IMG/VR virus record: IMGVR_UViG_3300020190_000031
Direction: 5' to 3' (one strand)
DNA length: 64,000 nt
DNA from: an uncultured virus (IMG/VR IMGVR_UViG_3300020190_000031)
Lineage: Duplodnaviria > Heunggongvirae > Uroviricota > Caudoviricetes
The notes beneath the pieces are model-generated. The model was given only the letters and a program-made list of their open reading frames with translations. It did no database searches and was not told the origin of the DNA. The position numbers and the translations under genes are program-made. Numbering within the stretch: the stretch's first letter is position 1; the number at the start of each line of letters is the position of its first letter. Shown piece after piece: positions 31,745 to 60,772 of this stretch.

Positions 31745-31789
31745 GTATCCTACTAAGCATTATCCAAGAGCAGTGATTGCTCTTTTTAT

Positions 31790-32518
31790 ATGAACGAAGA
31801 ACTAAGCCAGGCAGCCGAGATGGAGGCCCAACAAGTTCAAGAAAGTCCAACAGAGGAAGCGAGTGTTACTGAAAAAGAAGATATTCAAAATCTTCTCAAA
31901 GCACTTAAATCTGAACGGGAGGCTCGTAAGACTTACGAAAGACAAATTAAAGAAAAGGAAAAACAGTTAGAAAAGTTTAAAGAATTCAATCCTGAAGAAT
32001 ACCGTAAACTCCAGGCAGATGCTGCTAGGGCAGCAGAAATTGAGTCCCGGTATGGAGAATCAATCAGAGCGATTGAAGAGAAGTATGGCCGTCAGGCAGC
32101 AGAGGCCGAACAACGGGCCAAGGAGCTTGAGTCTAAAAACCGTGAATACTTGAAGCGTTATGCTCTTGAAAAGGTTTTTAATTCTGCTGGCGGCAGGACT
32201 GATTCGGCCGATGGCATTTCTTTCTTTGATATGTTCGCCAATCAGTTAAGCACAAGATTTAGGCAGGAGCCCGATGGCAGTCTTACGCCATTAGACGGTC
32301 AAGGCGATCCTATACTTGACAACGAAACCGGTAAGCGACTTACACCTGAAGAGTTCGTCACCCAATTCAAATCGCACCCTGTTTACGGCACATTCTTTAA
32401 AGGTGTGAAGGGTTCTGGGGCCGGCCTTAATTATGGTGGCACAGACGCAAACGGTCAACCTGTTGAAGACTTGTCGGCCCTTTCCCGAGATGAACTTTTC
32501 CTGAAAGCGTTTGGCTGA
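31790..32518 (+). CDS. Capsid scaffolding protein
   Basis: Charged coiled coil (ALKSEREARK), GSGAG near the C-terminus; directly upstream of the MCP. Confidence 0.8.
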   Translation: MNEELSQAAEMEAQQVQESPTEEASVTEKEDIQNLLKALKSEREARKTYERQIKEKEKQLEKFKEFNPEEYRKLQADAARAAEIESRYGESIRAIEEKYGRQAAEAEQRAKELESKNREYLKRYALEKVFNSAGGRTDSADGISFFDMFANQLSTRFRQEPDGSLTPLDGQGDPILDNETGKRLTPEEFVTQFKSHPVYGTFFKGVKGSGAGLNYGGTDANGQPVEDLSALSRDELFLKAFG

Positions 32519-32524
32519 TGCCCC

Positions 32525-32547
32525 AAAGCCCCAAAAGGGGCTTTTTT
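32525..32547 (+). terminator. Rho-independent terminator
   Basis: AAAGCCCC-AAAA-GGGGCTTTTTT. Confidence 0.75.
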
Positions 32548-32702
32548 ATTGGGAAGAATAGTTATTTTTGGAACTATATGATAGAAAGCACCCGGTTTTG
32601 GCTGGCCGTGATGGTTGGGCAGGCAGGGTGTTCCGATGTTGGGGCGTGACGCCCTAAGCAGCGTTTCACCTTTCCTTGTTCACATCAAAAGGAGTTTTTA
32701 AA

Positions 32703-33605
32703 ATGGGCCTTAGTTTATCTGAAGCCAAAAAGCATGCTTCTAATCCCCAAGAGCTTGCTATTATATCTGAGCTCTCCGCTGGTTCCCTGCTGAGCGTTCT
32801 ACCTTTCCGTGAAATCCAGGGCAATGGCTTGTTCTGGAAGCGTGAGGAGTCCCTGGGTGATGTGGGTTTCCGTAACTACAATGCTAGCTACGGTGAAGCC
32901 TATGCCGAGGTCAGCCAGCAATCTGAGAGCCTCCGTCTGTTCGGTGGCGATATCAAGATTGACCGTGCGATCCTTGAGCTGGAGGGTTCCGAGTCCCGCG
33001 CTTATCAGGTGCAGGCCAAGACCCGCGCAATGCGTCTGTCCTGGGAATCGCTGTTCATCAACGGCTCTTCAAATGAGTCGCCCAGCGAATTTGATGGTCT
33101 GGCCACTCGCCTGCCGGCTACCGCCTATGCGACCAACAGCCAGGTGATCCGTAATGCAGCGACTGCTGCTGCCCTGGATCTGGCCGCCTTAGATGAGGCC
33201 ATTGATGCTGTGGATGCCCAAGGTGGTACCAAGTACCTGGTAATGTCTAAGTCTCTGCGTCGTCATCTGACGAAGCAGGCACGTAGCTCTTCCCAGATTG
33301 ATATTGCCCGCAACGAGTTCGGCTACCAGCAAATGGTGTATGCCGGCCTGCCCGTTATCGAGCTTGATCGTGATCACAAGAATGCCCCGATTCTGGATGG
33401 CACCCCCGGTGATCAATCGCTCTATGTGGTGACCTTCGGCGGCGATCTGCTGACTGGCATCCAAAACGGCGGCGTTCAGGTGCGTGACCTGGGTGAGTCC
33501 ACTGCTTCCCCTCAAGTGGTCATTCGTGTTGAGTGGTATTGCGGTCTGGCTATGGTCAATGGCCGTTCGGCTGCTCGCCTGTGCAACGTGAACGCTACCG
33601 CCTAA
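32703..33605 (+). CDS. Major capsid protein
   Basis: 300 aa; LPF..I.GN, GGDIKIDR, EFDGL..RL and VEWYCGLA motifs; AAGGAG RBS; GC-rich codon use. Confidence 0.9.
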   Translation: MGLSLSEAKKHASNPQELAIISELSAGSLLSVLPFREIQGNGLFWKREESLGDVGFRNYNASYGEAYAEVSQQSESLRLFGGDIKIDRAILELEGSESRAYQVQAKTRAMRLSWESLFINGSSNESPSEFDGLATRLPATAYATNSQVIRNAATAAALDLAALDEAIDAVDAQGGTKYLVMSKSLRRHLTKQARSSSQIDIARNEFGYQQMVYAGLPVIELDRDHKNAPILDGTPGDQSLYVVTFGGDLLTGIQNGGVQVRDLGESTASPQVVIRVEWYCGLAMVNGRSAARLCNVNATA

Positions 33606-33644
33606 TTTTTTTGTTAGACTGGGTAGCAGCGGTTCATAAACAAC

Positions 33645-33669
33645 GAGGGGCTTCGGCCCCTCTTTTTTT
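33645..33669 (+). terminator. Rho-independent terminator after MCP
   Basis: GAGGGGC-TTCG-GCCCCTC-TTTTTTT. Confidence 0.9.
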
Positions 33670-33748
33670 GTTTTAGGAAACATAGCTTAGAACCACCAGC
33701 GCTGGTATACGTTTTGCGCGTTGGTTTTCCTCTCTTTCTTTTTTTATC

Positions 33749-34099
33749 ATGGCACGTCGCTCTACTGGTGTTTTTCCTCGCGAGAAATTTGATCTTGACG
33801 CTAATCTGGCTGTTACCACCAGCGATGCTGATCTGGGTGTGACCCTCAAGCACATTAAGACCATTCGATGCATCCTGGTAGGTACTACCATCACTGGCAA
33901 CGCTACCGTTACTTTTAACGTTGGCGGCAAGGATGTGGTGTTTGGCTCTGGTGACCTGGATCTGAATGGTGTTGGTATCGCTCATGTCCGTGGCGCTCTG
34001 TGTGATGCAGACAATCTGGTGAAATATACCATTACTGCTGGCACTGGTTCCGCCACCGTGGGTGGCGCTTTCCTGGATGTCGTCGAGAACCTCGGCTGA
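33749..34099 (+). CDS. Putative capsid decoration/cement protein
   Basis: 116 aa beta-rich, codon use like the MCP, own terminator. Confidence 0.6.
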   Translation: MARRSTGVFPREKFDLDANLAVTTSDADLGVTLKHIKTIRCILVGTTITGNATVTFNVGGKDVVFGSGDLDLNGVGIAHVRGALCDADNLVKYTITAGTGSATVGGAFLDVVENLG

Positions 34100-34126
34100 T
34101 TGGTTTTACCAAAAGGCTGGAATAAT

Positions 34127-34152
34127 AAGGGTGGCTTAGGTCACCCTTTTTT
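34127..34152 (+). terminator. Rho-independent terminator
   Basis: AAGGGTGGC-TTAG-GTCACCCTTTTTT. Confidence 0.8.
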
Positions 34153-34155
34153 GTC

Positions 34156-34395
34156 ATGCATCTATCTAAACTTCCTACCGTTTTTACTAAGGACGGCGTT
34201 GAACGCAAGGCTTATCATACTGTTGAGGCTCGCGAACTTATCAGCTTTGGATGGGTAGAAGCCGGTATAGAACTACCTATAGTCCAAGAGGCGACCGAGG
34301 CAATCGAATTAAAGGAAGAAGTCCAAGAAAAAGTAAAGGTAGTTAGAACAAAACCCCTTACCGTTAAGGTAGCAGAAACAGGAGCAAATAAATAA
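34156..34395 (+). CDS. Hypothetical protein
   Basis: 79-aa ORF. Confidence 0.6.
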   Translation: MHLSKLPTVFTKDGVERKAYHTVEARELISFGWVEAGIELPIVQEATEAIELKEEVQEKVKVVRTKPLTVKVAETGANK

Positions 34396-34574
34396 TGGAG
34401 TGCGAATACCTTGATGGACCTAGATATATTGAGGGAATCAATTTTGACGCAGATATTATAGCTGCTCAGCCCAGGGTTGTGATCCGTCAAATTACAGACC
34501 CCGTAAATGATGGCAGCCTTGGAAAGCCTTCTTATGCAGAGGGTTCACTTAACAAAGATAATACACTTTTTTAA
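34395..34574 (+). CDS. Hypothetical protein (59 aa, not in ORF track)
   Basis: TAATG coupling; MECEYLDGPRYIEG... Confidence 0.6.
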   Translation: MECEYLDGPRYIEGINFDADIIAAQPRVVIRQITDPVNDGSLGKPSYAEGSLNKDNTLF

Positions 34575-34575
34575 A

Positions 34576-34704
34576 ATGCCATTTAAATCAGAAAAACAAA
34601 AAAAATTTCTTTATGCTTTTGAGCCTAAGGTCGCACAGAAGTTTCAGCGTGAAGAGAACAAGGGCAGGACAAAGCGGAAAACTAAGGAAAAGGGAAAGCG
34701 CTAA
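34576..34704 (+). CDS. Small basic protein (MPFKSEKQ type)
   Basis: MPFKSEKQKKFLYA..PKVA.KF, a common phage mini-protein motif. Confidence 0.65.
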   Translation: MPFKSEKQKKFLYAFEPKVAQKFQREENKGRTKRKTKEKGKR

Positions 34705-34856
34705 TGGCTCTACCACTCTCTACTGCAAGACAGTTGTCGAAACCAAAAAATTCGGCAAAGGTAATTAGTGAATATAGTGGCAAAGCTGCCCCCAAAAGGA
34801 CAAAACCATTTAATGGTGCAACAGACAGATTTCGTCCCAAAAAGGGTTCAAAGTAA
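34704..34856 (+). CDS. Small basic protein (50 aa, not in ORF track)
   Basis: TAATG coupling on both sides. Confidence 0.6.
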   Translation: MALPLSTARQLSKPKNSAKVISEYSGKAAPKRTKPFNGATDRFRPKKGSK

Positions 34857-35155
34857 TGGCACCAAAGAAGAGGTCGACTGCTGATTTTTATGCCAATAAC
34901 CCTGATGCATATAAGAAAAAATTAGCATACGACAAACAACGCAATGCACGGCCGGATCGCAAAGATTATCGTGCGGAATTAGCTCGTGAGCGCCGTGCGC
35001 GTGGAATTATGGGCAAAGGTGGCAAAGACTTAAGTCATGCCGCCGATGGAGGGTTTAAATTAGAAGAACCAAGCAAAAACAGAGCAAGAAACGGCCATGG
35101 GAGCAATGGTCGATTAGCGCCCGGAAAAGGCACAAGAAAGTCACCAAAGAGATAA
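34856..35155 (+). CDS. Basic protein, degenerate HNH-like
   Basis: GKDLSH...SKNRARNG motif. Confidence 0.6.
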   Translation: MAPKKRSTADFYANNPDAYKKKLAYDKQRNARPDRKDYRAELARERRARGIMGKGGKDLSHAADGGFKLEEPSKNRARNGHGSNGRLAPGKGTRKSPKR

Positions 35156-35188
35156 AGGGCGGAATACTAGTTCAGCTCTGAAACGGAA

Positions 35189-36730
35189 ATGCCGATTCCC
35201 GCCAATCGTGCGAAGATTCAGCTTGCACGAGGCAACTATAATAACCTTCTCGCAAACGTAAGCGAATTTGCCGAGGGTGAACTTAGCTACGCTAAGGATC
35301 AAAATCTACTTTATATAAAAGAAGAAGGGCAATTAATAAGACTAGAATATGTTACGAGAGAAGATCTTGATGCAGCGGTTGAAGAATCTATCGATCTTGA
35401 GGTTTTTGGTGGGATAGGCCTTTTAACAGAAAATGGAACTGTAGGTACATCTCCTACTACAACTTTATCGATCGATGAAGTTTATCTTCGCGAAAAAGTT
35501 GGGATTACAGATTCTAAAGAGCCTGCCGGATTTGTTGATAAAACTCTGACGGTTATTGCACATAGACCTATTGAAAATCAAATTTGGCTTTATCCTACTG
35601 GAACATCTGCTGCCGTTTGGTGTCAAGGCATAAAACATTTATTTACTACATACAAATTTGTAGCAGAGCCTTCTTCTACAGGTTTATATTATATTTATTT
35701 AAATAGTTCTTTTAATTTACAAATAAAATCATCGCCATTTGACTATAAAAACGAAACGCCTGTATGTCAAATTTACTGGAATCAGGCGGCAGGCGAGCCG
35801 ATCCTATTGCTTGATCGCCGTCATGGGATTGCAATGAATTGGAGCACTCAAGAATTTCTTGAGGCTGGGTTTAGTCCTGTAATAAAATCTGGATTTGATT
35901 TTGTTTATAGTCTCCTAAATGGCCCGAGCCCTGAAGGCTCAACTAATGAGCATAGTCAGTTTGGCCTTGCAGATGGCACCGGATTGTTCCAGGACGTAAA
36001 AATTTATGTAGAACATAGCAATTCACCCGCTGACAACATTGCATCAAATCTTTTTCAGCAAAAGTTAAATCCTGTTGCACATATTCCTGTTTTATATCGA
36101 TCAGATACTGGGTCTTGGCTAAAGAAAACTGCTACAAATTATTCTTATGCATCAAATGCGGGTGTCCCCACGTATAACAAGTTTGAGGCATCTTGGTCGC
36201 TAGCAGCAGTAACAAATGGAAATTACTTTATTTCATATATTATATTAACAGCCAATACAGAATATCCTATTGTTTCTATTCCAGGTCAACATCAATACAC
36301 GTCATTGACATCTGCTCAGGCAGCAAGTTTTGATGAATTGATATTAGGTGATATTGATGGTTTACAGAAAAAAGTCCTATACAAAGTAATATATAAGTAT
36401 AATACGTCTTATACAAATACCTTAAAGACATCTATTGTTGATTTTCAAGATTTTAGAAAATCTGGCACTACTGGTATTGACAATGAAATTGTAGATCATG
36501 GTAAATTAACAGGCTTGCAGGATGATGATCATGCTCAATATGTGCATATTTCTGTTAATCGCACTGTTACAGCAAGTCATACCCACCAAGGTAAAATTAA
36601 TATAACAAATAACACGCAAAGCACAACGACAGCCAGTGGGGCATTTACTGTGACCGGGGGGGTTGGTATCAATGGAAACTTGAATGTTGCGGGCGACCTA
36701 GGGGTCACCCTAGACGGTGGCAACTTCTAG
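35189..36730 (+). CDS. Virion fibre protein
   Basis: IQLARG...GELSYAKDQNLLY N-terminus; DHGKLTGLQDDDHAQY; ends LDGGNF. Confidence 0.7.
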   Translation: MPIPANRAKIQLARGNYNNLLANVSEFAEGELSYAKDQNLLYIKEEGQLIRLEYVTREDLDAAVEESIDLEVFGGIGLLTENGTVGTSPTTTLSIDEVYLREKVGITDSKEPAGFVDKTLTVIAHRPIENQIWLYPTGTSAAVWCQGIKHLFTTYKFVAEPSSTGLYYIYLNSSFNLQIKSSPFDYKNETPVCQIYWNQAAGEPILLLDRRHGIAMNWSTQEFLEAGFSPVIKSGFDFVYSLLNGPSPEGSTNEHSQFGLADGTGLFQDVKIYVEHSNSPADNIASNLFQQKLNPVAHIPVLYRSDTGSWLKKTATNYSYASNAGVPTYNKFEASWSLAAVTNGNYFISYIILTANTEYPIVSIPGQHQYTSLTSAQAASFDELILGDIDGLQKKVLYKVIYKYNTSYTNTLKTSIVDFQDFRKSGTTGIDNEIVDHGKLTGLQDDDHAQYVHISVNRTVTASHTHQGKINITNNTQSTTTASGAFTVTGGVGINGNLNVAGDLGVTLDGGNF

Positions 36731-36766
36731 TGTAGGAATGATATAATGACTCCTTAAATTAAGAAA

Positions 36767-39393: not shown

Positions 39394-39395
39394 TT

Positions 39396-43486: not shown

Positions 43487-43864
43487 TCATTTTTCCTTTA
43501 AAGAAGGGCCGCTTGCAATAACTTCATAGATATATCTCTCAACTTCGTCAACTTCCCAGTCATATTCATTCGCCAATAAGTTGCCAAGGTAATTTAAGGT
43601 ATCTTCGTGCCCGTCGTGCCATTTGCCACTTTTCATTGCGTCATTTCTAACTTCGTTGATTGAAGTTAAAACATTAAGCTCGGATATCTCGTTTTCTTGA
43701 TCAGATGCAGCCTCCGCATGATCTAATCTTTGACGATCTATCATCCTTAAAAGTACCCACCCAATTCGACCATTTACATAAATGAGAAATTCACCAATGC
43801 CTTTTATGATCTTAAAAACCAGAAGGTTAGACCGACTGATTATATAAAACAGGACGGGCCTCAT
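43487..43864 (-). CDS. Hypothetical protein
   Basis: Directly downstream of the helicase. Confidence 0.65.
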   Translation of the reverse strand: MRPVLFYIISRSNLLVFKIIKGIGEFLIYVNGRIGWVLLRMIDRQRLDHAEAASDQENEISELNVLTSINEVRNDAMKSGKWHDGHEDTLNYLGNLLANEYDWEVDEVERYIYEVIASGPSLKEK

Positions 43865-46775: not shown

Positions 46776-47054
46776 ATGGCAAAACGGGGAAGGCCAAAAC
46801 GGGAAACACCGCTGACGGCTGAGGAACTGGCACAAAGAGAGGCCCGTTACGCAGCAAACCGGCTCAAAGCCCGCAGACTGGTCCAGAAGCAGCTCCGCGA
46901 GGAACGCCACGAATGGCAGGAAATTGGCTGGATCGTTCGAAAAATGAACAAGGAGGCCAAAATAAGCCAGGAAAGTATCTGGGAACTCCTTGGCGGACTG
47001 GTCAATAAAAAAAAAATTGCTAAATGGTGCAGCAGCAATTATTTACCCCGCTAG
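46776..47054 (+). CDS. Basic DNA-binding protein with an AT-hook-like motif
   Basis: KRGRPKR N-terminus. Confidence 0.6.
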   Translation: MAKRGRPKRETPLTAEELAQREARYAANRLKARRLVQKQLREERHEWQEIGWIVRKMNKEAKISQESIWELLGGLVNKKKIAKWCSSNYLPR

Positions 47055-47904: not shown

Positions 47905-48693
47905 ATGGCATTTGACACGGACACAATCAAATTTTGGATGGATGCTGCTGGTCGTTATCCACTACTTCATCCCCAACAAGTATTAATCCTTGCCAAGCAA
48001 ATTCAGCAAAATCCACCTGAAAGTAAAATTAGACAACGAGCCATCCAAAAATTAATCCGCCATAATCTTAAATTAATTCCTAAAATTGCCAGAAAAGCTA
48101 TGAAGGCAAAATACGGCAAAAATTTTGGCTCAACATATACTGAAGATGTTCTCCAATGCGGGGTACTCGGTTTAAGTCGTGCTGCAGAATTATATGATCC
48201 AACACGGGGCTACGCTTTTAGCACTTATGCAATTCCTTGGATTTTTCAGGCGATCACTAGGGACATGTGTAATAATATTTCAGCAATCCGAGTGCCTGAA
48301 AACACAATAAGAGAACACTATAATGCATTTAGAAATATTCAAAGTCCAAAAGAATTGCTTGAAATAAAAGAAAAAAAATTGCATCGATATTGGGATGCTT
48401 TTCGGGCTATAAATTGCAAATCTTCAGATTCAATGATGTCACAAAAGACTGGAGAGGATATCGACGTTGAAGGCACGTACATGGTTTCAGATATTACCAA
48501 TGAAGTTGTCGATGATGTCGATGACTTGCTTTCACTTTCTAAAACATCTGATTTGTCTGTTGAGTTGGTTAAGGCTCACTTTATTGAAAATACTACGATC
48601 AAAGAGCTTGGAAGAATACACAACATGTCAAGGAACCAAGTTGCAAAAATAATTAAGGATTGCTTATTGAGCATTAGGGACAACATAGATTAG
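47905..48693 (+). CDS. Sigma-70 factor, RpoD/group 2-like
   Basis: GRYPLL (region 1.2), NLKLI, GLSRAAELYDPTRGYAFSTYA.PWI.QAITR, C-terminal HTH. Confidence 0.9.
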   Translation: MAFDTDTIKFWMDAAGRYPLLHPQQVLILAKQIQQNPPESKIRQRAIQKLIRHNLKLIPKIARKAMKAKYGKNFGSTYTEDVLQCGVLGLSRAAELYDPTRGYAFSTYAIPWIFQAITRDMCNNISAIRVPENTIREHYNAFRNIQSPKELLEIKEKKLHRYWDAFRAINCKSSDSMMSQKTGEDIDVEGTYMVSDITNEVVDDVDDLLSLSKTSDLSVELVKAHFIENTTIKELGRIHNMSRNQVAKIIKDCLLSIRDNID

Positions 48694-49164: not shown

Positions 49165-49587
49165 ATGATGAAAGCGTTAGATCCATCAATGTTCCCAAGC
49201 GCCTTGGGCCCATTTGTAGATGAAAATCCATTATTAACGCATGCTCACATAAAACCTTGGATCATTGCTATTTTGCTGCAAAGGGGTGCAGTTAAGTTCA
49301 ATGAAATTATAACCGCAGTGTCTCCGCATTGTGCCCAAATTGACACGAAGGTTGGTGCCTATGGCGAACTAGAAGATTGCGATCCCGATAAAACAAGACT
49401 TGAATTATTTACCGAAGAAGTTCTTGGCGAAATGGTTGCAGAAGGAATTCTTAGATATAATGACGACAAGGACAATTGGGTTCTCACCACTGGTGTAAAT
49501 AACCTACATCTAACAACGATCATTAGCTGGGTTTCAACAACTGGCGGTCAATTACCAGCACATCTACTTTTAGACTTTGAAAAATGA
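49165..49587 (+). CDS. Hypothetical protein
   Basis: 140-aa ORF. Confidence 0.7.
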   Translation: MMKALDPSMFPSALGPFVDENPLLTHAHIKPWIIAILLQRGAVKFNEIITAVSPHCAQIDTKVGAYGELEDCDPDKTRLELFTEEVLGEMVAEGILRYNDDKDNWVLTTGVNNLHLTTIISWVSTTGGQLPAHLLLDFEK

Positions 49588-52171: not shown

Positions 52172-52360
52172 ATGTTAAAACCCAAAACCTATCCAATACT
52201 ACAACAAGCCATCGAAGAAGGAGTTCTAAGGGGATACAAGAAAGCCCATAAACATGTTGAAAAACCTGATGAAATATTTCTTGTTGAAACAATTATTAAT
52301 TATACAATGGAATCTATATTTGAGTGGTTTGACTTTGACAACTCAGATACGGCATCCTAA
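52172..52360 (+). CDS. Hypothetical protein
   Basis: 62 aa, AIEEG..RG..KAHKH...EWFDF. Confidence 0.65.
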   Translation: MLKPKTYPILQQAIEEGVLRGYKKAHKHVEKPDEIFLVETIINYTMESIFEWFDFDNSDTAS

Positions 52361-52373
52361 CTGGATTCAGTGA

Positions 52374-52967
52374 TTGAATGTGGCTGGTCATTGCTACGAT
52401 TTTCGCAGAGGTTATACACTTAAACCTCGCTTTCAAAAACATGAAAGCGCCAGTCAGTTCAAGGCGTTTCAGGAATATTTGAGAATGGGTGCCAACCGTA
52501 GTTTTGATCCAATTTCAAAATTAGCTCAGGTTGATATTGCTACAGTCAGAGGTTGGTGCAAAAGGTACAACTGGGAAAGCCGAGCTGCTCAATGGGACAA
52601 GGAGCAGGTTGCAATCACATGGCGAGATGCAGACAAAATGAGAGAGCAACGTCATAAACAGTCAATTTTAGAATTTAGAGATGCATCAGAAAGACAAGCT
52701 AGAATGATGATGGAGATCAGTGAAGATCTACTTTCAGTTTTAATTAAGAGAGTTAAAGATGCTCAAGATAGAGGCGAGGAGGTCCCAATGGCTCTTGTAT
52801 CTGGTTTGCTTCGCGCAACAGCAAACATTACAGAGCAATCCCGTCAAGCTTGGGCTTCGGCGTTGGGTGTTGAAGACATGCTCCAACTTGTTGAACAAGA
52901 ACTTGAAAGAGTAACAGTTGAGGAAATTGATGAGGTTGATGATGATATAATTGAGCTAGATGAGTAG
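52374..52967 (+). CDS. Terminase small subunit (putative)
   Basis: HTH with W..RY.W..RA..WD; upstream of TerL; late motif 52351-52359. Confidence 0.7.
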   Translation: MNVAGHCYDFRRGYTLKPRFQKHESASQFKAFQEYLRMGANRSFDPISKLAQVDIATVRGWCKRYNWESRAAQWDKEQVAITWRDADKMREQRHKQSILEFRDASERQARMMMEISEDLLSVLIKRVKDAQDRGEEVPMALVSGLLRATANITEQSRQAWASALGVEDMLQLVEQELERVTVEEIDEVDDDIIELDE

Positions 52968-52971: not shown

Positions 52972-53139
52972 ATGGACGACAACAAATTACAGGTCATTGA
53001 GAATGAGGATGGGAGTTTAACCATTCAATGGGAGGACGACCATCCGTTTGCCGCTATTTTTAATGAATGGAGTGAAGATGACTGGGTAGAAGCCATCAGA
53101 CTTGGTAATGAACGAGCCAGATTAAAAGATGGCGAATAA
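52972..53139 (+). CDS. Small acidic protein (55 aa, not in ORF track)
   Basis: LQVIENEDGSLTIQWEDDHP..IFNEWSEDDW; paralog of 5363..5578. Confidence 0.65.
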   Translation: MDDNKLQVIENEDGSLTIQWEDDHPFAAIFNEWSEDDWVEAIRLGNERARLKDGE

Positions 53140-54652
53140 ATTAGGTAGGGACTATTTACGCCGATCAGCAAGATCTCAGGGGATGTTAAAAGCCCTGAGA
53201 GAAAAGAAACTTAAATTAAAGGAAAAAGGCGAAAAAATTCTGTTCCATAAGTTTATAAAACAAGTATATCCAAATTATAAATTTTATAAATTTCACGCTG
53301 TTCTTATTAAAGAGTTGCAGCGTGTACTAGATGGTGAATGCGACCGGCTGATTTTACAAGTTCCCCCAAGAACAGGCAAGTCGCTGCTTAGTTCTCAATT
53401 ATTGCCAGCGGCTTATTTATTAGCTCACCCAGAGCGTTTTGTAGGTATTTCATCTTACTCTGCAGAGCTCAGCCAAGGATTTTCGAGGAAGGCGAGGGAC
53501 TTTTTCAAGGAGGCTGGCGGACAACTTGATCCGACCTCTCAGGCTGTTAATGCCTGGGGCACGCAAGGGGGTGGGGGATTATGGGCGACAGGTGTGGGAG
53601 GCGCCATAACAGGCCGCTCCGGCCACCTACTAATCATTGACGACCCTGTCAAAAACCGTGAAGAGGCCGAAAGTGGCAGATTGATGGAAAAACTTTGGGA
53701 CTGGTATGCTTCTACTCTTTATACACGTCTGGAACCAGAAGTTGGAGCAATTGTGGTCATTCAGACTAGATGGTCTGAGAACGATATGATTGGTCAACTT
53801 ATTGAAAACGAACAAAATGTTAGTGAAAAGGGTAGAGAGAATTGGACAATTGTAGACTTGCCTGCGTTATATGAAGATGAAGGTAGCAGGCCGCCTCTAC
53901 CTGAGCATTGTAAAGTCGTACCTGACTGGAGGGAAGAGGAAGGCCAGGCGCTTTGTCCACAGAGATACAATGAAGAAGATTATGAAAGAATCAGAGAGGC
54001 AATTGGTGCGAGGGAATTCGCTTCGCTGTATCAACAAAGACCGGCCCCAGTTGGTGGTAATATGTTTAATCCTGACTGGTGGCAGTTTTATGAGCATGAT
54101 ACCGTGATGCCTGATTTTAACAGGATCATGCTCTCTGTTGACTGTACATTTACTGATGCAAATACGAGCGACTTTGTCGTTGGCGCAGTCGTAGGCCAAG
54201 CTGGAAACTCATTTTATGTTTTAGATTTGTATAGGGAGAAAACTGATGTAATTGGAACTATGGCGATGATTTCAAGAATGTATAAACGACATGTTCTTGA
54301 TGGTACTATTATTGAGCTTGCTGCTAGTGGATATGCAGTTTATCAAATGGCCAAGAAAAAAGTACCAGGCTTAATTGGATTCAAGCCAGAAAAAAGCAAG
54401 GAGGCCCGAGCCACAGGCATTGTACCCGTTGTAGAAGCCGGAAATGTCTACTTACCTGTTAGCGCTCCATGGTTAGATGCGTTTATATCGGAATTTAGTC
54501 TATTCCCGGCGGCAAAAAATGATGACCAGGTTGACGCAGTGACAATGGCCATAAATTATTGTTTACAACGAACTGCACCACAATTAACACAGGTTGCCTG
54601 GGGTAGAGGTACAAGATATTTGGGTGATTCTCTCGCAAGTGAATTATGGTGA
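53129..54652 (+). CDS. terL: Terminase large subunit
   Basis: PPRTGKS, ITGRSGHLLIIDDPVK, IQTRW, YQQRP, DDQVDA. Confidence 0.95.
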   Translation: MANKLGRDYLRRSARSQGMLKALREKKLKLKEKGEKILFHKFIKQVYPNYKFYKFHAVLIKELQRVLDGECDRLILQVPPRTGKSLLSSQLLPAAYLLAHPERFVGISSYSAELSQGFSRKARDFFKEAGGQLDPTSQAVNAWGTQGGGGLWATGVGGAITGRSGHLLIIDDPVKNREEAESGRLMEKLWDWYASTLYTRLEPEVGAIVVIQTRWSENDMIGQLIENEQNVSEKGRENWTIVDLPALYEDEGSRPPLPEHCKVVPDWREEEGQALCPQRYNEEDYERIREAIGAREFASLYQQRPAPVGGNMFNPDWWQFYEHDTVMPDFNRIMLSVDCTFTDANTSDFVVGAVVGQAGNSFYVLDLYREKTDVIGTMAMISRMYKRHVLDGTIIELAASGYAVYQMAKKKVPGLIGFKPEKSKEARATGIVPVVEAGNVYLPVSAPWLDAFISEFSLFPAAKNDDQVDAVTMAINYCLQRTAPQLTQVAWGRGTRYLGDSLASELW

Positions 54653-54678: not shown

Positions 54679-55311
54679 ATGGCAAGAAAAGCAAGAAAGT
54701 TTCATTTAAGCAAAGAACAGCAAAAGCTTGCATCTGACAATATAAACCTAGCCAGAAGGGAAGCCTGGCGTTTACAACGCACTACAGATATAGACTATGA
54801 CACATTAGAGGGTGCAGCATTGGAAGGTTTATGCAAAGCAGCTTCAAGATATGATCCTTCTTCGGGATACAAGTTCAGTAGTCTTGCTGTGCCTACAATA
54901 AGGGGTGAATTGTTACATTGGGTTAGAGATAAAACATATTCGATGAGATTAACTCATAGGATGAGAGAAACTTGGATCAAAGGAAGAAAACTTTTATACA
55001 AAGGTTTTTTGGACGACGAGATTGCCGAATCGTTGGGCATTCTCCCTGAGGAATGGCAAGAAATAAAGGGTGTTTGTTCGGGACCACCCTTGGAATTAAA
55101 TGATCAGGCCAAGCCGACTGAAAGCTTAGAGCCTGATGAGATTGACTTCGCCGATAGGTTTCAAGTTGCTACTTTAATGGGATGGTCTCAAATGTTAGAA
55201 CAAGATCAATTAGCAATATTAAACTTTCTGCAAAACAACACTAATCGTATACCTCATTCACAAATTAAAGAGTTCACTCGTTTGGCTAATCTGTTTTATG
55301 AAGATACTTGA
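54679..55311 (+). CDS. Sigma-70 factor, group 3 (SigF-like), region 4 apparently degenerate
   Basis: GLCKAASRYDPSSGYKFSSLAVPTIRGELLHWVRD; no clear C-terminal HTH. Confidence 0.85.
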   Translation: MARKARKFHLSKEQQKLASDNINLARREAWRLQRTTDIDYDTLEGAALEGLCKAASRYDPSSGYKFSSLAVPTIRGELLHWVRDKTYSMRLTHRMRETWIKGRKLLYKGFLDDEIAESLGILPEEWQEIKGVCSGPPLELNDQAKPTESLEPDEIDFADRFQVATLMGWSQMLEQDQLAILNFLQNNTNRIPHSQIKEFTRLANLFYEDT

Positions 55312-55387: not shown

Positions 55388-56962
55388 ATGGCCATTTCTG
55401 CTGAAACAATTGATAAAATTAAATCTTTAAATATTTCGCACATATTAGAGCAGGAGGGTGTTGTTTTAAAAAGGGTGGGTAGGGAATTTATTACACATTG
55501 TGTTTGGCATGAAGATAAAAACCCCTCTCTGACAATATCCGATCAAAAGGGATTTGTGTTTTGCCATGTTTGTCGAGAGGGGGGCGATGCAATACATTTT
55601 GTTCAAAAGAAATATAATTTAAATTTTAGGGAAGCTTGCGAAAAAATTGCTAACAACAATAACATACAGATTATATTAAAAGACGAAGATCCACAAATAG
55701 CAATAGAAAGAAAAAAACAAATTGACAAACAGTTGGATAACGTACAGCAATATCAAAACAAATTTAGATTAGCCTTGAGACAGAGTCAATTTGCAGTAGA
55801 TTTCATTAAAAAGCGAAATATACAACCTATAACATCAAAATTCTTTGGTTTAGGTTATGATGCTAATGAGAACAGACTTGTAATTCCTATTAAGGATTTT
55901 CAAGGAAGGATAGTAGGCTTCACAAGAAGAGCCCTTGACGATAAAAAACCCAAGTATAAAAATACTGAAAATAATATTATTTTTAATAAGTCTGAAATTG
56001 TATTTAATGAATACGATGCATTGGACTCAATAAGAGAATCTGGTCAGTGCATATTTGTTGAGGGTCATATCGATGTTATGGCTTTATGGCAAATCAATAT
56101 CAAAAATGTTGTCGCTCTGCAAGGAACTGCTTCACCATCGGAAAATGTTATTTTTAGAATGATGCGTCGCACGACTAGTTTTGTGCTATGCATGGATGCT
56201 GACGAAGGAGGCAAAAAAGCAATTAGTCTATTTCTTGAAAATGTAAAACAATTTACATTATCTGGCAAGCTTGATGTGAGTATAGCCTCAATACCTATGG
56301 GGAAAGACCCCGATGAGGCTATCACGCAAGGTGTTAACATGAAAGATGTAATAGCCAATTCAATATCATGGATAGATTGGCAACTCGATCAATGGTTTAT
56401 TAATTTAGACTTTAAAAACAATACAAAAGTACAGGAGGTTGAAAAGCATGTCAGGGATCTCATCTCACAATTAACAAGCTCTGCCTTGCGAGCTCATTAT
56501 TACGATAAAGCTGCCATACGTTTAGCGCAAAACAAACAAAATCTTGCCGTTGAGATTTTGAAGAATTTACAATCTGCAAAACCTAATAATAATTCACAAA
56601 ATATTTGGCTGAAGCCTGATAAACTATGGACTAGAAATTTAGTAGAAAAAAGACTTCTTAGACTATATATTCATAGACCTTCTTTGCGATATATGTTGCG
56701 ACCATTAATGGAAAAACTATTTATACCTGACATGGTATGGATGTGGAATAGAATAAATGAATTAGAGGAGTTCTCTTCAGTCGATTGCACCCCTTATAGT
56801 GTGATGGCTATTTTATTATCATCAGAGCCAAGATATTTGCAAAAATTAAGACCACTTGCTCGACCCACAATAGAAATCGATGATTGCAGCGAAGTTATAT
56901 TGCATATTGAAGATACTATGATGATTGATCTAAATCAGCAAAATGAAGGCATTCTATTATGA
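55388..56962 (+). CDS. dnaG: DnaG-type DNA primase
   Basis: CHC2 Zn finger (CVWHEDKNPS..CHVC), PKYKNT, VEG..D, TOPRIM DAD, GKDPD. Confidence 0.92.
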   Translation: MAISAETIDKIKSLNISHILEQEGVVLKRVGREFITHCVWHEDKNPSLTISDQKGFVFCHVCREGGDAIHFVQKKYNLNFREACEKIANNNNIQIILKDEDPQIAIERKKQIDKQLDNVQQYQNKFRLALRQSQFAVDFIKKRNIQPITSKFFGLGYDANENRLVIPIKDFQGRIVGFTRRALDDKKPKYKNTENNIIFNKSEIVFNEYDALDSIRESGQCIFVEGHIDVMALWQINIKNVVALQGTASPSENVIFRMMRRTTSFVLCMDADEGGKKAISLFLENVKQFTLSGKLDVSIASIPMGKDPDEAITQGVNMKDVIANSISWIDWQLDQWFINLDFKNNTKVQEVEKHVRDLISQLTSSALRAHYYDKAAIRLAQNKQNLAVEILKNLQSAKPNNNSQNIWLKPDKLWTRNLVEKRLLRLYIHRPSLRYMLRPLMEKLFIPDMVWMWNRINELEEFSSVDCTPYSVMAILLSSEPRYLQKLRPLARPTIEIDDCSEVILHIEDTMMIDLNQQNEGILL

Positions 56963-57200
56963 TATTTTGGACATGGTAATGAATGCCTTTATGGCTCTGG
57001 CTTTCTTATTGGCTGTCCTCTTTCCTGAACAGCTATTGTTTTACACTGAAAAATTAGAACTAAATATTAAAATTGTTTTGATGGATATTAATTTATTTAT
57101 ACGATCATATTTGATTTACCGTAAACTGAAGGCAGATTCTCAAAAAATGAATTTTGATCTTCCTCAATTTTATTACACACGCATTCAGGATCGTAACTAA
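56943..57200 (+). CDS. Hypothetical membrane protein
   Basis: Hydrophobic N-terminus. Confidence 0.55.
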   Translation: MKAFYYDILDMVMNAFMALAFLLAVLFPEQLLFYTEKLELNIKIVLMDINLFIRSYLIYRKLKADSQKMNFDLPQFYYTRIQDRN

Positions 57201-57349
57201 TGGCTAAGCAAACCGCAGTGGTCTTTGAACCGGCACCGCCCAAGCGTACAAGAATTGGCGATGGGCGTCGAGTTAGGACTCGCCTTGCACAAGGTAGAAC
57301 CAAAAGAAGTTCAGCCCGTAAATTTTATAGGGGCCAAGGCAAGGGTTAA
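57200..57349 (+). CDS. Small Arg-rich protein (49 aa, not in ORF track)
   Basis: TAATG coupling; PKRTRIG.G...K.YRGQG phage mini-protein motif. Confidence 0.65.
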   Translation: MAKQTAVVFEPAPPKRTRIGDGRRVRTRLAQGRTKRSSARKFYRGQGKG

Positions 57350-57353
57350 TCAG

Positions 57354-57632
57354 ATGAATTTTAGGACAGCCGCAATTTCGGACATTATCGAAGAGGTTGA
57401 TCTTCTTTTCCTGGAGGAAAACGTTGCCAAGGCCGCTGTCCTATTGTTCAATTTAAACAAGGAACGCCATGAATTATGGTTGCAACTAAAAGTTGCTTTG
57501 CTGCATTCAGCCATTGGCCATAATCAACTTTTTTTAATGACAAGCATTATAGAGGTTGCGGAAAAAACACATTTGTCTCTCTCGTATCATTTGGTTCCAG
57601 GATTGCACATTGCAGCGCAAGAAATAAAATGA
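57354..57632 (+). CDS. Hypothetical protein
   Basis: 3' part of track ORF 57225..57632; ATG 57354 follows the previous stop. Confidence 0.55.
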   Translation: MNFRTAAISDIIEEVDLLFLEENVAKAAVLLFNLNKERHELWLQLKVALLHSAIGHNQLFLMTSIIEVAEKTHLSLSYHLVPGLHIAAQEIK

Positions 57633-57781
57633 TTGAAGATAGCCTTGATTCCTTAAATAATAATGATAAAAGCGAGGAGCTGTTAGACGAAAGCCCGAAA
57701 TCCCTGTTGCCAACAGGCTTTTGGAACAAAATATGCCAGCAGGAGCCTGGCTATCAAGGTTGCAAACTTTATGATTTATAG
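57629..57781 (+). CDS. CP12-like protein (C-terminal Cys pair only; not in ORF track)
   Basis: Acidic 50 aa ending C-QQEPGYQG-C-KLYDL, matching the CP12 C-x8-C-xxYD terminus; ATGA overlap. Confidence 0.6.
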   Translation: MIEDSLDSLNNNDKSEELLDESPKSLLPTGFWNKICQQEPGYQGCKLYDL

Positions 57782-57831
57782 GTCCTGTTGATCAGTATCC
57801 CGGTAAACTGTTTTTACCGATTATCACAGGG

Positions 57832-60180
57832 ATGACCGAGTTTCTAAAATCCGCGCCTAGTGCAGAGGCAGTTTTTTATCGCACATATAGTCGTCGCAAG
57901 GCAGATGGCACCAGGGAGAACTTTTGCGAGGCAATGACCCGTTGTGTTAAGGCTATTGCTCAAACAGGCAAGTTTACCGTAGAAGAAGAAAACCTTGTAC
58001 TTCAACAGGCCTTGAAACAGGCTTGCTTCCCGTCCGGCAGAGCTTTCTGGGTTGCGGGTACCGAATGGGCCGAGGACAGTACAAATTACAGTGGTTGGTA
58101 TAACTGCACCAGCACAAGAGTAAAAGATTTAGAAGCTTTTGAGCTCATTATGGAGCTTGCCATGATGGGATCTGGCACGGGAGCAATGTTGGAGAAAGAT
58201 ACAATCATATCCTTGCCAAGGATTGAAAATACAATTGACATTGTGTTTATTACTGACGTTGGCGGTGTTGCGCCTAATCAGCGGGAGCAGGAAAGCTTTT
58301 TGGTTGAGCCGCGAGAAAGCAACGAACCTGAGTATGTTCTTGTGGTTGGGGATAGCAGAAAGGGCTGGGTCAAAGCTTATCGTCAAATCCTTGAGCTCGC
58401 ATGCGATCCAGAGGGTGAAGACATTCCTTTAATTATTGACTTAGGTAATGTTCGTCCATCCGGCGAAAAACTAAAAGGTTTTGGCGGCACTTCAAACCCA
58501 ATTAAGCTTAAGGAAGTTTTTGAAAAAATTGTCTCCTTGCTCAACAATGCAGTTGGCAGAAAGTTAACAGCAATCGAATGCTGTTTAATAATTGATGAGG
58601 CTGCAGCCTGTGTGGTTGCGGGCAACATCCGCCGCAGCGCCGGCATGCGCCAATTCTCTTGGGATGACACAGAGGCAATTAACTCAAAGGCTAATTTATA
58701 TACGCAGGATGAAAATGGGAATTGGCGTGTGGATCACAAAAAGGAAGCCCTTCGAATGGCAAATCATACTACTTGCTATCATTTCAAGCCAACACTTGAA
58801 GAAGTTGAGGAGTCTGTTCGACAGCAATTTTATAGTGGTGAGGGCGCCATACAATATGTTCCACAGGCCCTAATTCGCGCAAATATTGACATATTAGATT
58901 CCCCCGATGTTCAACAAAGATTTTTAAAAGAATATGCCAAGGGCAAGGAGTTTGCCGAGCATTTTCTTGTTCATTATGCATATGAAAAAGGAATTACCAT
59001 TAACAAGCGGGAGGCCGAGCACCGAATCAATCGCTATGGCTTGAATCCATGCGGTGAAATCATTGGCACAGACTTCCATTGCAATCTTGCTGAAATCCAC
59101 TTGAACACTATTGACCCAAATGATCGACAGGCTCAAATTGATGCATTTAAAGCGGGAGCTCTACAAGTCGCTGCTTTATTACATCACCAATTTAAGGATG
59201 AAAGATATCAATATAGTCGTAAGATTGATCCAATTGTTGGAGTTAGTTTTACTGGTCTTTTTGATTTCTTTGTTATTGCTTTTGGCGCTGAATGGCTTGG
59301 CTGGATGATGAAGGGTCGGCCTAATAATAATTTAGGCAGAAAGTTTAGCAATTCTGAAATCAAATACTTGTCACTATGGCGAAGTGTTGTCAGGGAGACA
59401 ATCAATAAGTACTGCATGCAACATGGGTTGCGTGTGCCTAATCGTATGACGACCGTACAACCTGCTGGGACAAAAAGTTTACTTACGGGCGCCTCTTCTG
59501 GATGGCATCCTCCCAAGGCTCAGCGATTTATTCGCAGAATTACATTTGGCAAGACCGACCCCTTGGTGTCTGCTTTGCGGGACTGGGGTTATGCGGTAGT
59601 ACCAGCACAATCCGCTAGAGACGAGCATGGGAAGTTGCTTGATGACATCATGGATGATCGAGTCCATGAAGTCTTGGTTGAGATCCCCACTGAAGTATCC
59701 TGGGCTAACTTATCTGGTTGTGATGAATTTGATTTAAGCAAATTGCCTGTTGAATCTCAATGGTGGCTATATATGCAAGTGCAACAATTTTATACTGAAC
59801 ATAATACTAGCGCTACGATTGAATATCGACTTGAAGAATTGACTGTACTCTCTGATTTGATTTACCAGTCGATTAAAAATGATACGGGTTATATATCGGC
59901 AGCCTTATTGGCACGGTTTGATGCTAATGAGACCTTCCCTCGTTTGCCATTTGAGCCAATCGATAAGGTTACTTATGATAGACTGAATGGCGTTTCCGAA
60001 TCTTACCGATCAGCACTTCCACTTATCTTCAAGAAAGATAGGGTTGACTTCCTTGAAGTTTTAAATCAGTACGATAAGGCTGATTATGAATTGAAAGGCA
60101 GCGCTGGCTGTGACAGCGATAAATGCCTTTACGAGGCGTCAAAAGATAGCGATCAGGCTGGATTTCAGGTTCAATTATGA
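57832..60180 (+). CDS. nrdJ: Class II (cobalamin-dependent) monomeric ribonucleotide reductase
   Basis: FYRTYSR, PSGR, YNC, VAGNIRRSA, NPCGEI, CNLAE, TVQPAGT, C-terminal CDSDKC. Confidence 0.93.
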   Translation: MTEFLKSAPSAEAVFYRTYSRRKADGTRENFCEAMTRCVKAIAQTGKFTVEEENLVLQQALKQACFPSGRAFWVAGTEWAEDSTNYSGWYNCTSTRVKDLEAFELIMELAMMGSGTGAMLEKDTIISLPRIENTIDIVFITDVGGVAPNQREQESFLVEPRESNEPEYVLVVGDSRKGWVKAYRQILELACDPEGEDIPLIIDLGNVRPSGEKLKGFGGTSNPIKLKEVFEKIVSLLNNAVGRKLTAIECCLIIDEAAACVVAGNIRRSAGMRQFSWDDTEAINSKANLYTQDENGNWRVDHKKEALRMANHTTCYHFKPTLEEVEESVRQQFYSGEGAIQYVPQALIRANIDILDSPDVQQRFLKEYAKGKEFAEHFLVHYAYEKGITINKREAEHRINRYGLNPCGEIIGTDFHCNLAEIHLNTIDPNDRQAQIDAFKAGALQVAALLHHQFKDERYQYSRKIDPIVGVSFTGLFDFFVIAFGAEWLGWMMKGRPNNNLGRKFSNSEIKYLSLWRSVVRETINKYCMQHGLRVPNRMTTVQPAGTKSLLTGASSGWHPPKAQRFIRRITFGKTDPLVSALRDWGYAVVPAQSARDEHGKLLDDIMDDRVHEVLVEIPTEVSWANLSGCDEFDLSKLPVESQWWLYMQVQQFYTEHNTSATIEYRLEELTVLSDLIYQSIKNDTGYISAALLARFDANETFPRLPFEPIDKVTYDRLNGVSESYRSALPLIFKKDRVDFLEVLNQYDKADYELKGSAGCDSDKCLYEASKDSDQAGFQVQL

Positions 60181-60698
60181 GCACTCTTGTCGACCACGAA
60201 ATTAGAGAACTTTGCCGTAAATCTGGCTTGGTAGAGCCGTTTGATGTCGATCTTTGTAATCCCGCCAGTATAGACATTAGGCTTGGGGACACAATTCTTG
60301 TAGAGGGTCGTATTTGCGGCCCCGAACAAGAACGTTCCCGCTGGATAAAACATAAAATTTCTGATACTGGTTACAATTTGGCACCTGGACAGTTTATCTT
60401 GGCACATTCATTTGAGGTAATTAGAATTCCGAATTGGTTGGAGGCCACTTTTCATTTAAAAAGCAGTCGTGGGCGAGAGGGTCTAAATCATCTTCTTGCA
60501 GGATACGTCGATCCAGGTTTTAATGGCCGAATTACCTTAGAACTTCAAAATGTAAATAGTCGACATAACGTCGAACTTACCGCTGGCATGCGAATTGGCC
60601 AGTTAAGGTTTAGTAAGCTTGAACATACCCCATTGCAATCATATGCCGTTACTGGACGATATATGAATGATATGACAGTCGTTGCAAGCAGGGGCTGA
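60177..60698 (+). CDS. dcd: dCTP deaminase
   Basis: NPASIDIRLG, KSSRGREG, AGYVDPGFNGRITLEL. Confidence 0.92.
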   Translation: MSTLVDHEIRELCRKSGLVEPFDVDLCNPASIDIRLGDTILVEGRICGPEQERSRWIKHKISDTGYNLAPGQFILAHSFEVIRIPNWLEATFHLKSSRGREGLNHLLAGYVDPGFNGRITLELQNVNSRHNVELTAGMRIGQLRFSKLEHTPLQSYAVTGRYMNDMTVVASRG

Positions 60699-60772
60699 AG
60701 GTAGACTAATAGGAGTCGCGTGATGCGACAAAATATATTTTGCCGTGAAGGCTTTACCTCGCTGAGATAGCA

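Follow-up and report, generated by a model that had tools for sequence, protein, structure and literature searches.

The 64 kb stretch analysed here (the window), to which all scans of this virus were confined, makes up most of the genome of an uncultured siphovirus of picocyanobacteria (IMG/VR record IMGVR_UViG_3300020190_000031). Its genes for the head scaffolding protein, the major capsid protein (MCP), the portal protein and the small terminase subunit (terS) carry short hairpins in their leaders or around their start codons, and these hairpins share one type of five-nucleotide loop on differing stems. Comparison with PHROGs bore out the scaffold, capsid and portal identities proposed in an initial annotation of this DNA. 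It also identified the large terminase, a tape measure protein and two sigma factors (47905-48693 and 54679-55311). The nearest named relatives are the Synechococcus phages S-CBS2 and S-CRES1-3, with 64-68% amino-acid identity in portal and MCP, and the Prochlorococcus phage P-SS2 is more distant (45-52%).

All seven stem-loops listed in the initial annotation are present at the coordinates given there, two at the scaffold gene, two at the MCP gene and three at the portal gene. One of them, S2, indeed has an imperfect stem; as a correction, it lies inside the scaffold coding sequence. The list had missed an eighth copy at the start of terS (Table 1). Counting in the window is of little help. 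Hairpins with a GWGAH loop, a stem of at least 3 bp and G-U pairs allowed number 31 on the plus and 12 on the minus strand, and the bare loop word occurs 380 and 220 times, respectively. Among perfect stems of 5 bp or more the most frequent loop is GTGAT, yet it accounts for just 3 of 107. Judged on the window only, the motif does not clearly exceed chance, and the motif scan proposed earlier cannot separate chance from a real signal on window frequency. Relatives show positional conservation, compensatory stem changes and loop invariance, and we therefore judge the hairpins to be real.

Table 1. Positions of hairpins, leader elements, promoter-like boxes and genes in the window.
Feature	Position	Strand	Sequence or match	Remark
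S1	31766..31784	+	AAGAGCA-GTGAT-TGCTCTT	scaffold 5' untranslated region, 5 nt before ATG
S2	31810..31828	+	GGCAGCC-GAGAT-GGAGGCC	imperfect; inside scaffold coding sequence, codons 7-13
hpA	32602..32618	+	CTGGCC-GTGAT-GGTTGG	MCP leader; 95.5% paired; 4/4 pairs changed on both sides
hpB	32639..32657	+	TTGGGGC-GTGAC-GCCCTAA	MCP leader; 93.0% paired; 5/5 pairs changed on both sides
H1	60715..60729	+	GTCGC-GTGAT-GCGAC	portal leader; 84.5% paired in 41 leaders
H2	60742..60752	+	GCC-GTGAA-GGC	portal leader; 95.8% paired
H3	60761..60771	+	GCU-GAGAU-AGC	followed by one A, then portal ATG at 60773; 91.4% paired
terS hairpin	52365..52379	+	ATTCA-GTGAT-TGAAT	overlaps start of small terminase open reading frame
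Structured MCP leader element	32586..32673	+	CACCC - hpA - AGGGUG - hpB - UCACC	
5' strand of upstream helix	32588..32593	+	GCACCC	pairs with GGGUGU 32626-31 and encloses hpA
Shared strand	32626..32631	+	GGGUGU	pairs with 32588-93 or with CACCU 32667-71, not both
Downstream strand and pyrimidine tract	32667..32677	+	CACCU then UUUCCUU	UUUCCUU complementary to Shine-Dalgarno-like AAGGAG 32689-94
Promoter-like box	31744..31752	+	GGTATCCTA	upstream of scaffold; overlaps stop codon of preceding gene
Promoter-like box	32570..32578	+	GGAACTATA	upstream of MCP, just past scaffold terminator (32525-44)
Promoter-like box	52351..52359	+	GGCATCCTA	upstream of terS
Promoter-like box	60700..60708	+	GGTAGACTA	upstream of portal; G, G, A, C, T, A columns nearly invariant
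Head scaffolding protein gene	31790..32518	+	phrog_206, E=5.2e-28	
Major capsid protein gene	32703..33605	+	phrog_212 major head protein, E=3.5e-67	
Portal protein gene	60773..62365	+	phrog_145, E=1.3e-92	
Small terminase subunit gene (terS)	52374..52967	+	phrog_6299, E=3.1e-31	
Large terminase gene	53129-54652		PHROGs	

From IMG/VR we fetched 80 MCP-anchored, 54 portal-anchored, 79 large terminase (TerL)-anchored and 80 tail-tube-anchored loci, which gave 64 distinct MCP loci (248 kb), 44 portal loci, 34 terS relatives and 63 tail-tube loci (179 kb). Across the MCP loci, G-N-G-A-N hairpins with a stem of at least 4 bp and at least two G-C pairs occurred 215 times on the plus and 18 times on the minus strand. 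Of the 215, 99 preceded the MCP start by 50-100 nt and 81 stood at the start of the scaffold gene; other pentaloops were spread flat over the same loci. At the portal loci, where stems of at least 3 bp were counted, 104 of 146 plus-strand hairpins fell within 100 nt before the start, and the minus strand held 39. Loops of the type G.GA. made up 20% of all pentaloop hairpins in MCP leaders (103/519) and 23% in portal leaders (43/188), and GTGAT was the single commonest pentaloop in MCP leaders.

Covariation was tested on MAFFT alignments that had not been fitted to any structure, using a slid pairing partner and 500 shuffles as controls. In the scaffold alignment (S1 and S2, 49 sequences) 90.0% of positions were paired, against 40-48% with slid partners, and the covariation score was 0.568 against at most 0.158. 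The corresponding values were 94.0% against 31-54% and 0.743 against at most 0.200 for hpA and hpB of the MCP leader (54 distinct sequences), and 89.9% against 21-46% and 0.403 against at most 0.105 for H1-H3 of the portal leader (41 sequences). For the paired fraction, the cells with changes on both sides and the covariation score, none of the 500 shuffles matched the observed value in any of the three alignments; since the sequences are related, this control overstates significance and does not give a true probability. Less discriminating was the number of pairs with a change on both sides, which was reached by 156 (scaffold), 116 (MCP) and 1 (portal) of 500 shuffles. The number of further pair types was reached by 0, 1 and 0, respectively. 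Between 7 and 35 distinct inner stems were found per site. Among 1383 stem cells, G-U combinations numbered 127 and A-C combinations 40, an excess that points to a fold of plus-sense RNA and not to a DNA palindrome. Compensatory stem changes, which the initial annotation had named as a check on its proposal, are thus seen in the scaffold, MCP and portal alignments of relatives. The hairpins form a conserved cis-acting RNA motif on plus-sense head-morphogenesis transcripts of S-CBS2/P-SS2-like cyanosiphoviruses. The earlier suggestion of a real, shared and strand-specific RNA motif marking head-assembly genes that lie far apart is therefore substantiated by conserved positions and covariation.

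The loop was characterized from 329 distinct rows over the seven sites. G-N-G-A-N was matched by 303 of them and GWGAH by 251. Loop positions G1, G3 and A4 were each conserved at 97%, position 2 was A in 47%, U in 38%, C in 13% and G in 2%, and position 5 was U in 62%, C in 25%, A in 9% and G in 4%, hence a pyrimidine in 87%. The loop-closing pair was mostly C-G. A shared loop on differing stems, as first described, was thus confirmed, but GWGAH proved too narrow with C at position 2 in 13%, and the consensus becomes G-H-G-A-Y. In the motif, this pentaloop caps a short stem that may have any sequence. We considered pairing of the loop with the 3' tail of 16S rRNA (GUGAU:AUCAC) and with a conserved UCACC box, and rejected both by reasoning, position 2 being A or C in 60% of the rows.

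With G1, a purine at position 3, A4 and one extra base, the loop has the sequence features of the n5-n6 insertion class of GNRA-like pentaloops, and we infer a GNRA fold with one additional, looped-out 3' pyrimidine. Pentaloops with a GNRA fold are described in which the extra base occupies one of four places, one of them behind the A as in RNase MRP, and the looped-out base faces protein in three of four representative insertion variants (PMC12550061). In RNase MRP RNA (PDB 6W6V), the same loop type has its extra 3' base flipped out facing POP1 (PMC12550061); the biological context is unrelated, and the phage loop is assigned to this type by its sequence. The only pentaloop family described earlier, as presented in PMC9830547, is G-N-R-N-A, as in boxB.

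In the scaffold leader, S1 was present in 48 of 48 usable relatives, where it begins 9-16 nt (median 12) after a promoter-like box and stops 3-10 nt (median 6) short of the AUG. Its helix was 97.2% paired with 5 of 6 pairs changed on both sides, and its stems range from AGAGCA/TGCTCT and TAGGGA/TCCCTA to GGGGC/GCCCC and CCAGGT/ACCTGG. The second hairpin is placed with similar precision: among the 33 relatives in which S2 has an uninterrupted stem of 3 bp or more, 28 have its loop G1 27 nt downstream of the A of the AUG. S2 was 85.4% paired, and all seven of its pairs were changed on both sides despite the coding region, which indicates that codons 7-13 vary so as to keep the stem. Together, S1 and S2 bracket the scaffold AUG, S1 ending at about -6 and the S2 stem starting at about +21. 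No Shine-Dalgarno-like sequence was visible in the spacer of scaffold leaders. In the window, S1 is followed by TTTTTAT and was flagged as terminator-like. The possibility that the hairpins are intrinsic terminators was rejected, because a T-run follows S1 in the window's subclade only and is missing both after S1 elsewhere and after the remaining six hairpins.

At least two hairpins were found in 52 of 54 MCP leaders, about 38 nt apart, with hpB ending 41-53 nt (median 46) before the AUG. They are embedded in a larger element in which one strand can pair on either side. The upstream helix was 97.3% paired in 54 distinct leaders, with invariant sequence and zero compensatory change, and the downstream helix (GGGUG:CACC) was 97.0% paired. 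RNAalifold picks the upstream helix, single-sequence minimum-energy folds favour the downstream one, and covariation cannot choose between the two because the boxes are invariant. In an L052-like clade, a second complementary block extends the upstream helix. A switch between the two mutually exclusive helices is a reasonable inference, no more. The complementarity of UUUCCUU to the Shine-Dalgarno-like AAGGAG is confined to the window's clade, and we therefore do not propose sequestration of the Shine-Dalgarno sequence as a general feature. A covariance model of the leader element (R1), built from 51 sequences, recognised it in the window (82.8 bits), in S-CBS2 (64.1) and in S-CRES1-3 (50-52). 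Across another 516 kb of sequence the model gave weak echoes only, in the portal leaders of the relatives L110 (22 bits) and L111 (20 bits). At E<=1 the model misses the MCP leader of P-SS2, although the element is visible there by eye. S-CBS2 carries an HNH endonuclease gene between scaffold and MCP (1830-2306 of locus L004), with the MCP leader element intact downstream of it.

Portal leaders carry at least two hairpins in 37 of 41 cases. H1 begins 7 nt after the promoter-like box. The middle pair of H2 (-3.3 kcal/mol) is evenly split, C-G and G-C occurring in 19 sequences each. H3, with a stem of 3 bp and a stability of -0.6 kcal/mol only, has U-A as inner pair in 16 and A-U in 14 sequences, and its spacer to the ATG is 1 nt in 28 of 38. 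In S-CBS2, the annotated portal start (66329) lies about 70 nt upstream of the onset of portal similarity (66398) with the leader hairpins in between, and the true start is probably the later position, 66398.

Hairpins of the same loop type were also seen inside coding sequences. TCTGT-GTGAT-GCAGA at 33997-34011 (plus strand) lies within the open reading frame (ORF) 33749-34099; its stem is kept, with the loop GTGAC, in the S-CBS2 homologue gp041 (32813-32827), other relatives show no peak there, and it may simply be conserved coding sequence. A longer hairpin, CGTGGCC-GAGAA-GGCTACG, and variants of it were found inside the dCTP deaminase gene of four relatives (L113, L124, L125 and L132), about 300-670 nt before the portal start. 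It is absent from the window.

All four hairpin-bearing genes are preceded by a box with the consensus GG[ACT]ANNNTA, which is conserved in alignments of the scaffold-upstream region. It stands before head and tail genes alike, at 6644, 10356, 11112 (preceding the tape measure gene), 31744, 32570, 33676, 52351 and 60700 on the plus strand, often directly after a terminator. The bare pattern has 65 sites on the plus and 24 on the minus strand of the window. The 8-mer box ATAGGYAT, with one mismatch allowed, was uninformative (110 matches against 109.7 expected). The GG[ACT]ANNNTA box is probably the promoter of the late genes, and one of the phage's two sigma factors may recognise it.

The same box allows head and tail genes to be compared. 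In the window, the box-bearing leaders of the tail region lack the G-N-G-A-N hairpin, and the tail leaders of both the window and S-CBS2 carry other hairpins. Among relatives the motif occurs in just 3 of 63 tail-tube leaders despite the same box, all three from one S-CRES1-like subclade, and over the whole tail-tube region G-N-G-A-N hairpins are equally frequent on both strands (13 and 13). The initial annotation had placed the motif at the three procapsid genes and had seen none in tail-gene leaders. The three genes stand, as does the absence from tail leaders of the window, of S-CBS2 and of 60 of the 63 tail-tube loci. The restriction to these three genes does not, in view of the terS copy and of one subclade with a copy before its major tail gene. 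Tail-tube leaders have a conserved hairpin of their own after the box, GGGG-UGAAU-CCCC, with the TGAAT loop occurring 25 times in the 63 loci, and a second hairpin follows it. In the tail-tube leader of the window (10356-10427) the first hairpin reads GGGG-TGGAT-CCCC. Many tail-tube relatives have UUCACCC directly before the AUG, and GGGGUG could pair with CACCC, a theme that recalls the MCP leader.

In complete genomes, S-CBS2 has leader copies at scaffold, MCP and portal, and S-CRES1 at the same three genes and at the major tail gene; both lack the terS copy. P-SS2 has copies at terS, scaffold and MCP, and a 3-bp copy before the head-morphogenesis gene gp030. Overall, scaffold and MCP carry two copies each, portal two to three, and the small terminase gene optionally one. 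Three alphaproteobacterial phages whose head genes are homologous lack the motif in their scaffold and MCP leaders, and the T7-like cyanopodovirus P-SSP7 lacks it in the leaders of its head genes. The motif is consequently not general to the head-gene family or to cyanobacterial hosts, and belongs to the S-CBS2/P-SS2-like cyanosiphovirus lineage.

What could such a motif do? We favour the reading in which a loop-specific trans-acting factor would use the hairpins as operators and so bring the head genes under common post-transcriptional control, and we give it an even chance of being right. Three features favour it. Invariant G1, G3 and A4 over seven sites with free stems suggest a common reader. 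H3, H2 and the terS hairpin are only marginally stable (-0.8 kcal/mol for the terS hairpin alone), H2 and H3 nevertheless showing compensatory changes, which suggests a stabilising partner. Finally, placement on or beside ribosome-binding sites points to translation. The putative factor, probably a protein and probably phage-encoded, would read G1, G3, A4 and the flipped-out base and would stabilise weak stems on or next to ribosome-binding sites. The dispersed head genes would thereby gain one common control, most likely translational, which would be separate from that of tail genes having the same type of promoter. Hairpin number and position would grade the effect. The portal is the protein required in the lowest copy number, and its leader has the largest number of hairpins, one of them abutting the AUG, which is a plausibility argument; the scaffold AUG is bracketed, and the MCP gene has its hairpins 40-100 nt upstream, within a leader that can form two mutually exclusive helices.

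Several observations weigh against operator hairpins, in addition to the chance-level frequency in the window and the lenient shuffle control mentioned above. The structures tested for covariation were derived from the window's own hairpins. Membership is partial at terS, with a G-N-G-A-N hairpin upstream of the gene in 14 of 34 distinct relatives and in P-SS2; it is not strict at the tail, given the one subclade with a copy before the major tail gene, and the portal leader of P-SS2 is without the motif. A hairpin abuts or overlaps the start region at portal (H3), scaffold (S1) and terS. At the MCP gene none does, and because the hairpins there lie a median of 46 nt away, one steric mechanism acting on the ribosome-binding site would not account for every gene. 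The box is a putative promoter, the hairpins presumably lie inside the transcript, and the GNRA-like fold of the loop is predicted from sequence only. A reader is at present a matter of candidates, as Pfam found no RNA-binding domain in 58 ORFs, and ORFs 34856-35155, 62540-62977 and 49165-49587 are named as possible readers from composition or co-occurrence only.

The first of these candidates (plus strand) encodes 99 amino acids with a pI of 10.7 and an arginine-rich stretch, RAELARERRARG, within the head-gene block. It corresponds to phrog_6437, a virus-only family of unknown function, and is conserved in 37 loci including S-CBS2. Another small basic ORF in the window is 46776-47054. In total, 26 of the 81 ORFs of the window are common to S-CBS2, S-CRES1 and P-SS2, and two of them are without a PHROG functional category, among them the portal-adjacent ORF 62540-62977 (plus strand). 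Its family has 200 relatives at E<=1e-5, with three invariant Cys, invariant Trp and Pro, and a basic stretch W-R/K-G-K-Q-P-S-W-N-R. The AF2 model of this protein is of middling confidence (pLDDT 69.9). Structure comparison does not help its candidacy: Foldseek with this model gave zero matches at E<=0.001, and VIA-align reached a best Z of 4.4, with SH3/KOW/Tudor-like small barrels at Z 3-4, below noise level. A PDB profile search returned MYB21 only (E=0.064). ORFs 8460-8930 and 35189-36730 have only weak PHROG matches to tail or structural families (E~0.002-0.003). ORF 9425-10327 has zero PHROG or Pfam matches and is called structural from its position only.

The strongest rival, which we nevertheless consider unlikely, dispenses with a factor altogether. 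The hairpins would then protect the 5' ends of the messages against 5'-end-dependent RNases and/or frame the start codon, leaving it in a defined single-stranded gap and positioning the 30S subunit on leaders without a Shine-Dalgarno sequence; the GNRA-like loop would serve only fast and stable folding or docking onto the ribosome or another RNA. The short distance from the box places S1 near the presumed mRNA 5' end, and portal H1 also closely follows its box. The gap between S1 and S2 that holds the scaffold AUG is fixed, with no Shine-Dalgarno-like sequence visible in the spacer, and GNRA-type loops are known modules of tertiary contact (PMC12550061). However, stability alone would be served by a GNRA or UUCG tetraloop, and the terminators of this phage do use tetraloops. 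H3 and the terS hairpin are too weak to act by folding alone, the tail-tube gene behind the same box has no such hairpin, the portal, needed in few copies, has the most, and the near-invariance of loop positions 1, 3 and 4 over seven sites speaks for a specific reader.

A reader could also be a nuclease. If the loops were sites at which an RNase cuts or is blocked, the half-lives of the head-gene messages would be set jointly, and a conserved loop in head-gene leaders would be explained as well as by operators. The GAGA-type loop of the ribosomal sarcin-ricin loop is a known target of nucleases or toxins. We regard this as quite improbable, since tight spacing to the start codon and a hairpin inside the coding sequence (S2) suit translation better than decay, and no RNase gene was recognised. 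One lead, S-CRES1 gp1 (70-504 of locus L229), bears the label RNase III without Pfam support at E<=1, and its equivalent in the window, ORF 43487-43864 (minus strand) beside a helicase gene, has no Pfam support either.

Similarity to the boxB hairpins of lambda and P22 raises the question of nut sites, at which an N-like phage protein bound to the nascent hairpin would make the polymerase terminator-resistant. In both cases there is a short phage hairpin with a stem of little sequence importance, a GNRA-like pentaloop with a looped-out base and a promoter-proximal site (PMC9830547, PMC12550061), and in the window's clade S1 with its T-run even has a terminator-like score. That T-run is absent in other clades, however, and the loops differ: boxB is G-N-R-N-A with the extra base inside, the third or fourth base being extruded, and with a sheared G-A pair and an obligatory final A, while in the phage G-H-G-A-Y loop the A is at position 4, the extra base follows it, and position 5 is mostly a pyrimidine. 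There is also nothing to read through, because scaffold and MCP are short units, each having its own box and a strong terminator immediately downstream of the gene (32525-44 and 33645-62), not part of a long operon. Unlike boxB, the present motif sits on monocistronic units and is tied to start codons, which it abuts (H3) or follows (S2). No boxA-like element between box and first hairpin is common to the three leaders, a GCGC-like block being found there in scaffold leaders only, and no N-like protein was recognised with Pfam, although the window does have small basic ORFs such as 34856-35155 and 46776-47054. We consider nut sites very improbable. Least tenable are double-stranded DNA palindromes for a dimeric late-gene activator or repressor, for although inverted repeats with a 5-bp spacer do lie just past the promoter-like box in a phage with two sigma factors, a DNA-binding protein would read the arms, and here the arms vary freely with only the spacer conserved, some stems have just 3 bp, S2 lies 27 nt inside a coding sequence, and G-U outnumbers A-C in the stems.

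Operator hairpins have well-known parallels among phages. In MS2, PP7 and Qbeta, a weak hairpin at a start codon is stabilised by the coat protein, a virion component, and translation is thereby coupled to assembly. This is the closest analogue to how the present motif might work, although in those phages the genome is single-stranded RNA and the operator is a single one that has a bulged A and differs in its loop. The present phage, with double-stranded DNA, carries two to three hairpins without a bulge on each of three to four mRNAs, and the binder is putative. In T4 and Mu, the proteins RegA, gp32, gp43 and Com (on mom) act at mRNA leaders and lower or raise the translation of sets of genes. 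RegA binds AU-rich single-stranded sites, gp32 works through a pseudoknot, and Com acts by opening a stem that is inhibitory. These operators resemble the present motif in leader binding near ribosome-binding sites, but none is a pentaloop hairpin shared by head genes. For the control of the P22 scaffold we know of no RNA operator motif that has been defined. Translational autoregulation by the P22 scaffolding protein is on record (bioRxiv 10.1101/2022.12.13.520362), so that the precedent invoked in the initial annotation exists, although nothing found here ties it to the present motif. A tailed-phage scaffold gene is controlled after transcription in that case too, but it is the scaffold alone and not portal, capsid or terminase.

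No described motif was found to match, as had been stated from the outset. Rfam 15 at gathering thresholds returned only three tRNAs and a glutamine riboswitch over the whole window, and relaxing the cut-off to E<=10 for the portal leader and the scaffold/MCP region brought chance-level matches only, far below gathering scores. Literature searches, with subscription journals outside their range, did not return a description of the motif.

A more specific version of the operator reading is a tentative one, and we think it rather doubtful, if possible: an RNA regulon in which a phage reader, possibly unassembled scaffold or another head component, would couple translation of portal, scaffold, capsid and terminase to procapsid assembly, with hairpin number and placement setting a stoichiometry of roughly 12 : 100s : 100s. 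If true, this would be the first defined RNA motif coordinating head morphogenesis in a tailed double-stranded DNA phage, and the long-known link between scaffold synthesis and assembly would gain the cis element that it lacks. In tailed phages it is mostly unexplained how genes that share their late promoters yield very unequal amounts of portal, scaffold and capsid, and post-transcriptional control of the P22 scaffold has been known for decades without a defined RNA element. In the cyanophages studied here, which are widespread in marine and fresh water, a simple RNA motif marks the messages for head assembly. The evidence comes from the cultured phages S-CBS2, S-CRES1-3 and P-SS2 and from well over a hundred distinct metagenomic loci, which makes the question directly testable. 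The hairpins would also provide a natural example of a little-documented loop class, the GNRA fold with a flipped-out 3' base. In practice, the motif could serve annotation by pointing to head genes and true start codons in uncultured cyanosiphoviruses, the S-CBS2 portal being an example.

The glutamine riboswitch aptamer (RF01739) lies at 5581-5681 on the plus strand and scored 41.8 bits against a gathering score of 35. Two small ORFs (5707-5862 and 5862-6062) follow it, and a DUF3155 gene (4787-5179) lies just before it. The three tRNA genes, Arg-TCT, Met-CAT and Leu-TAA, are clustered at 63409-63636 on the plus strand.

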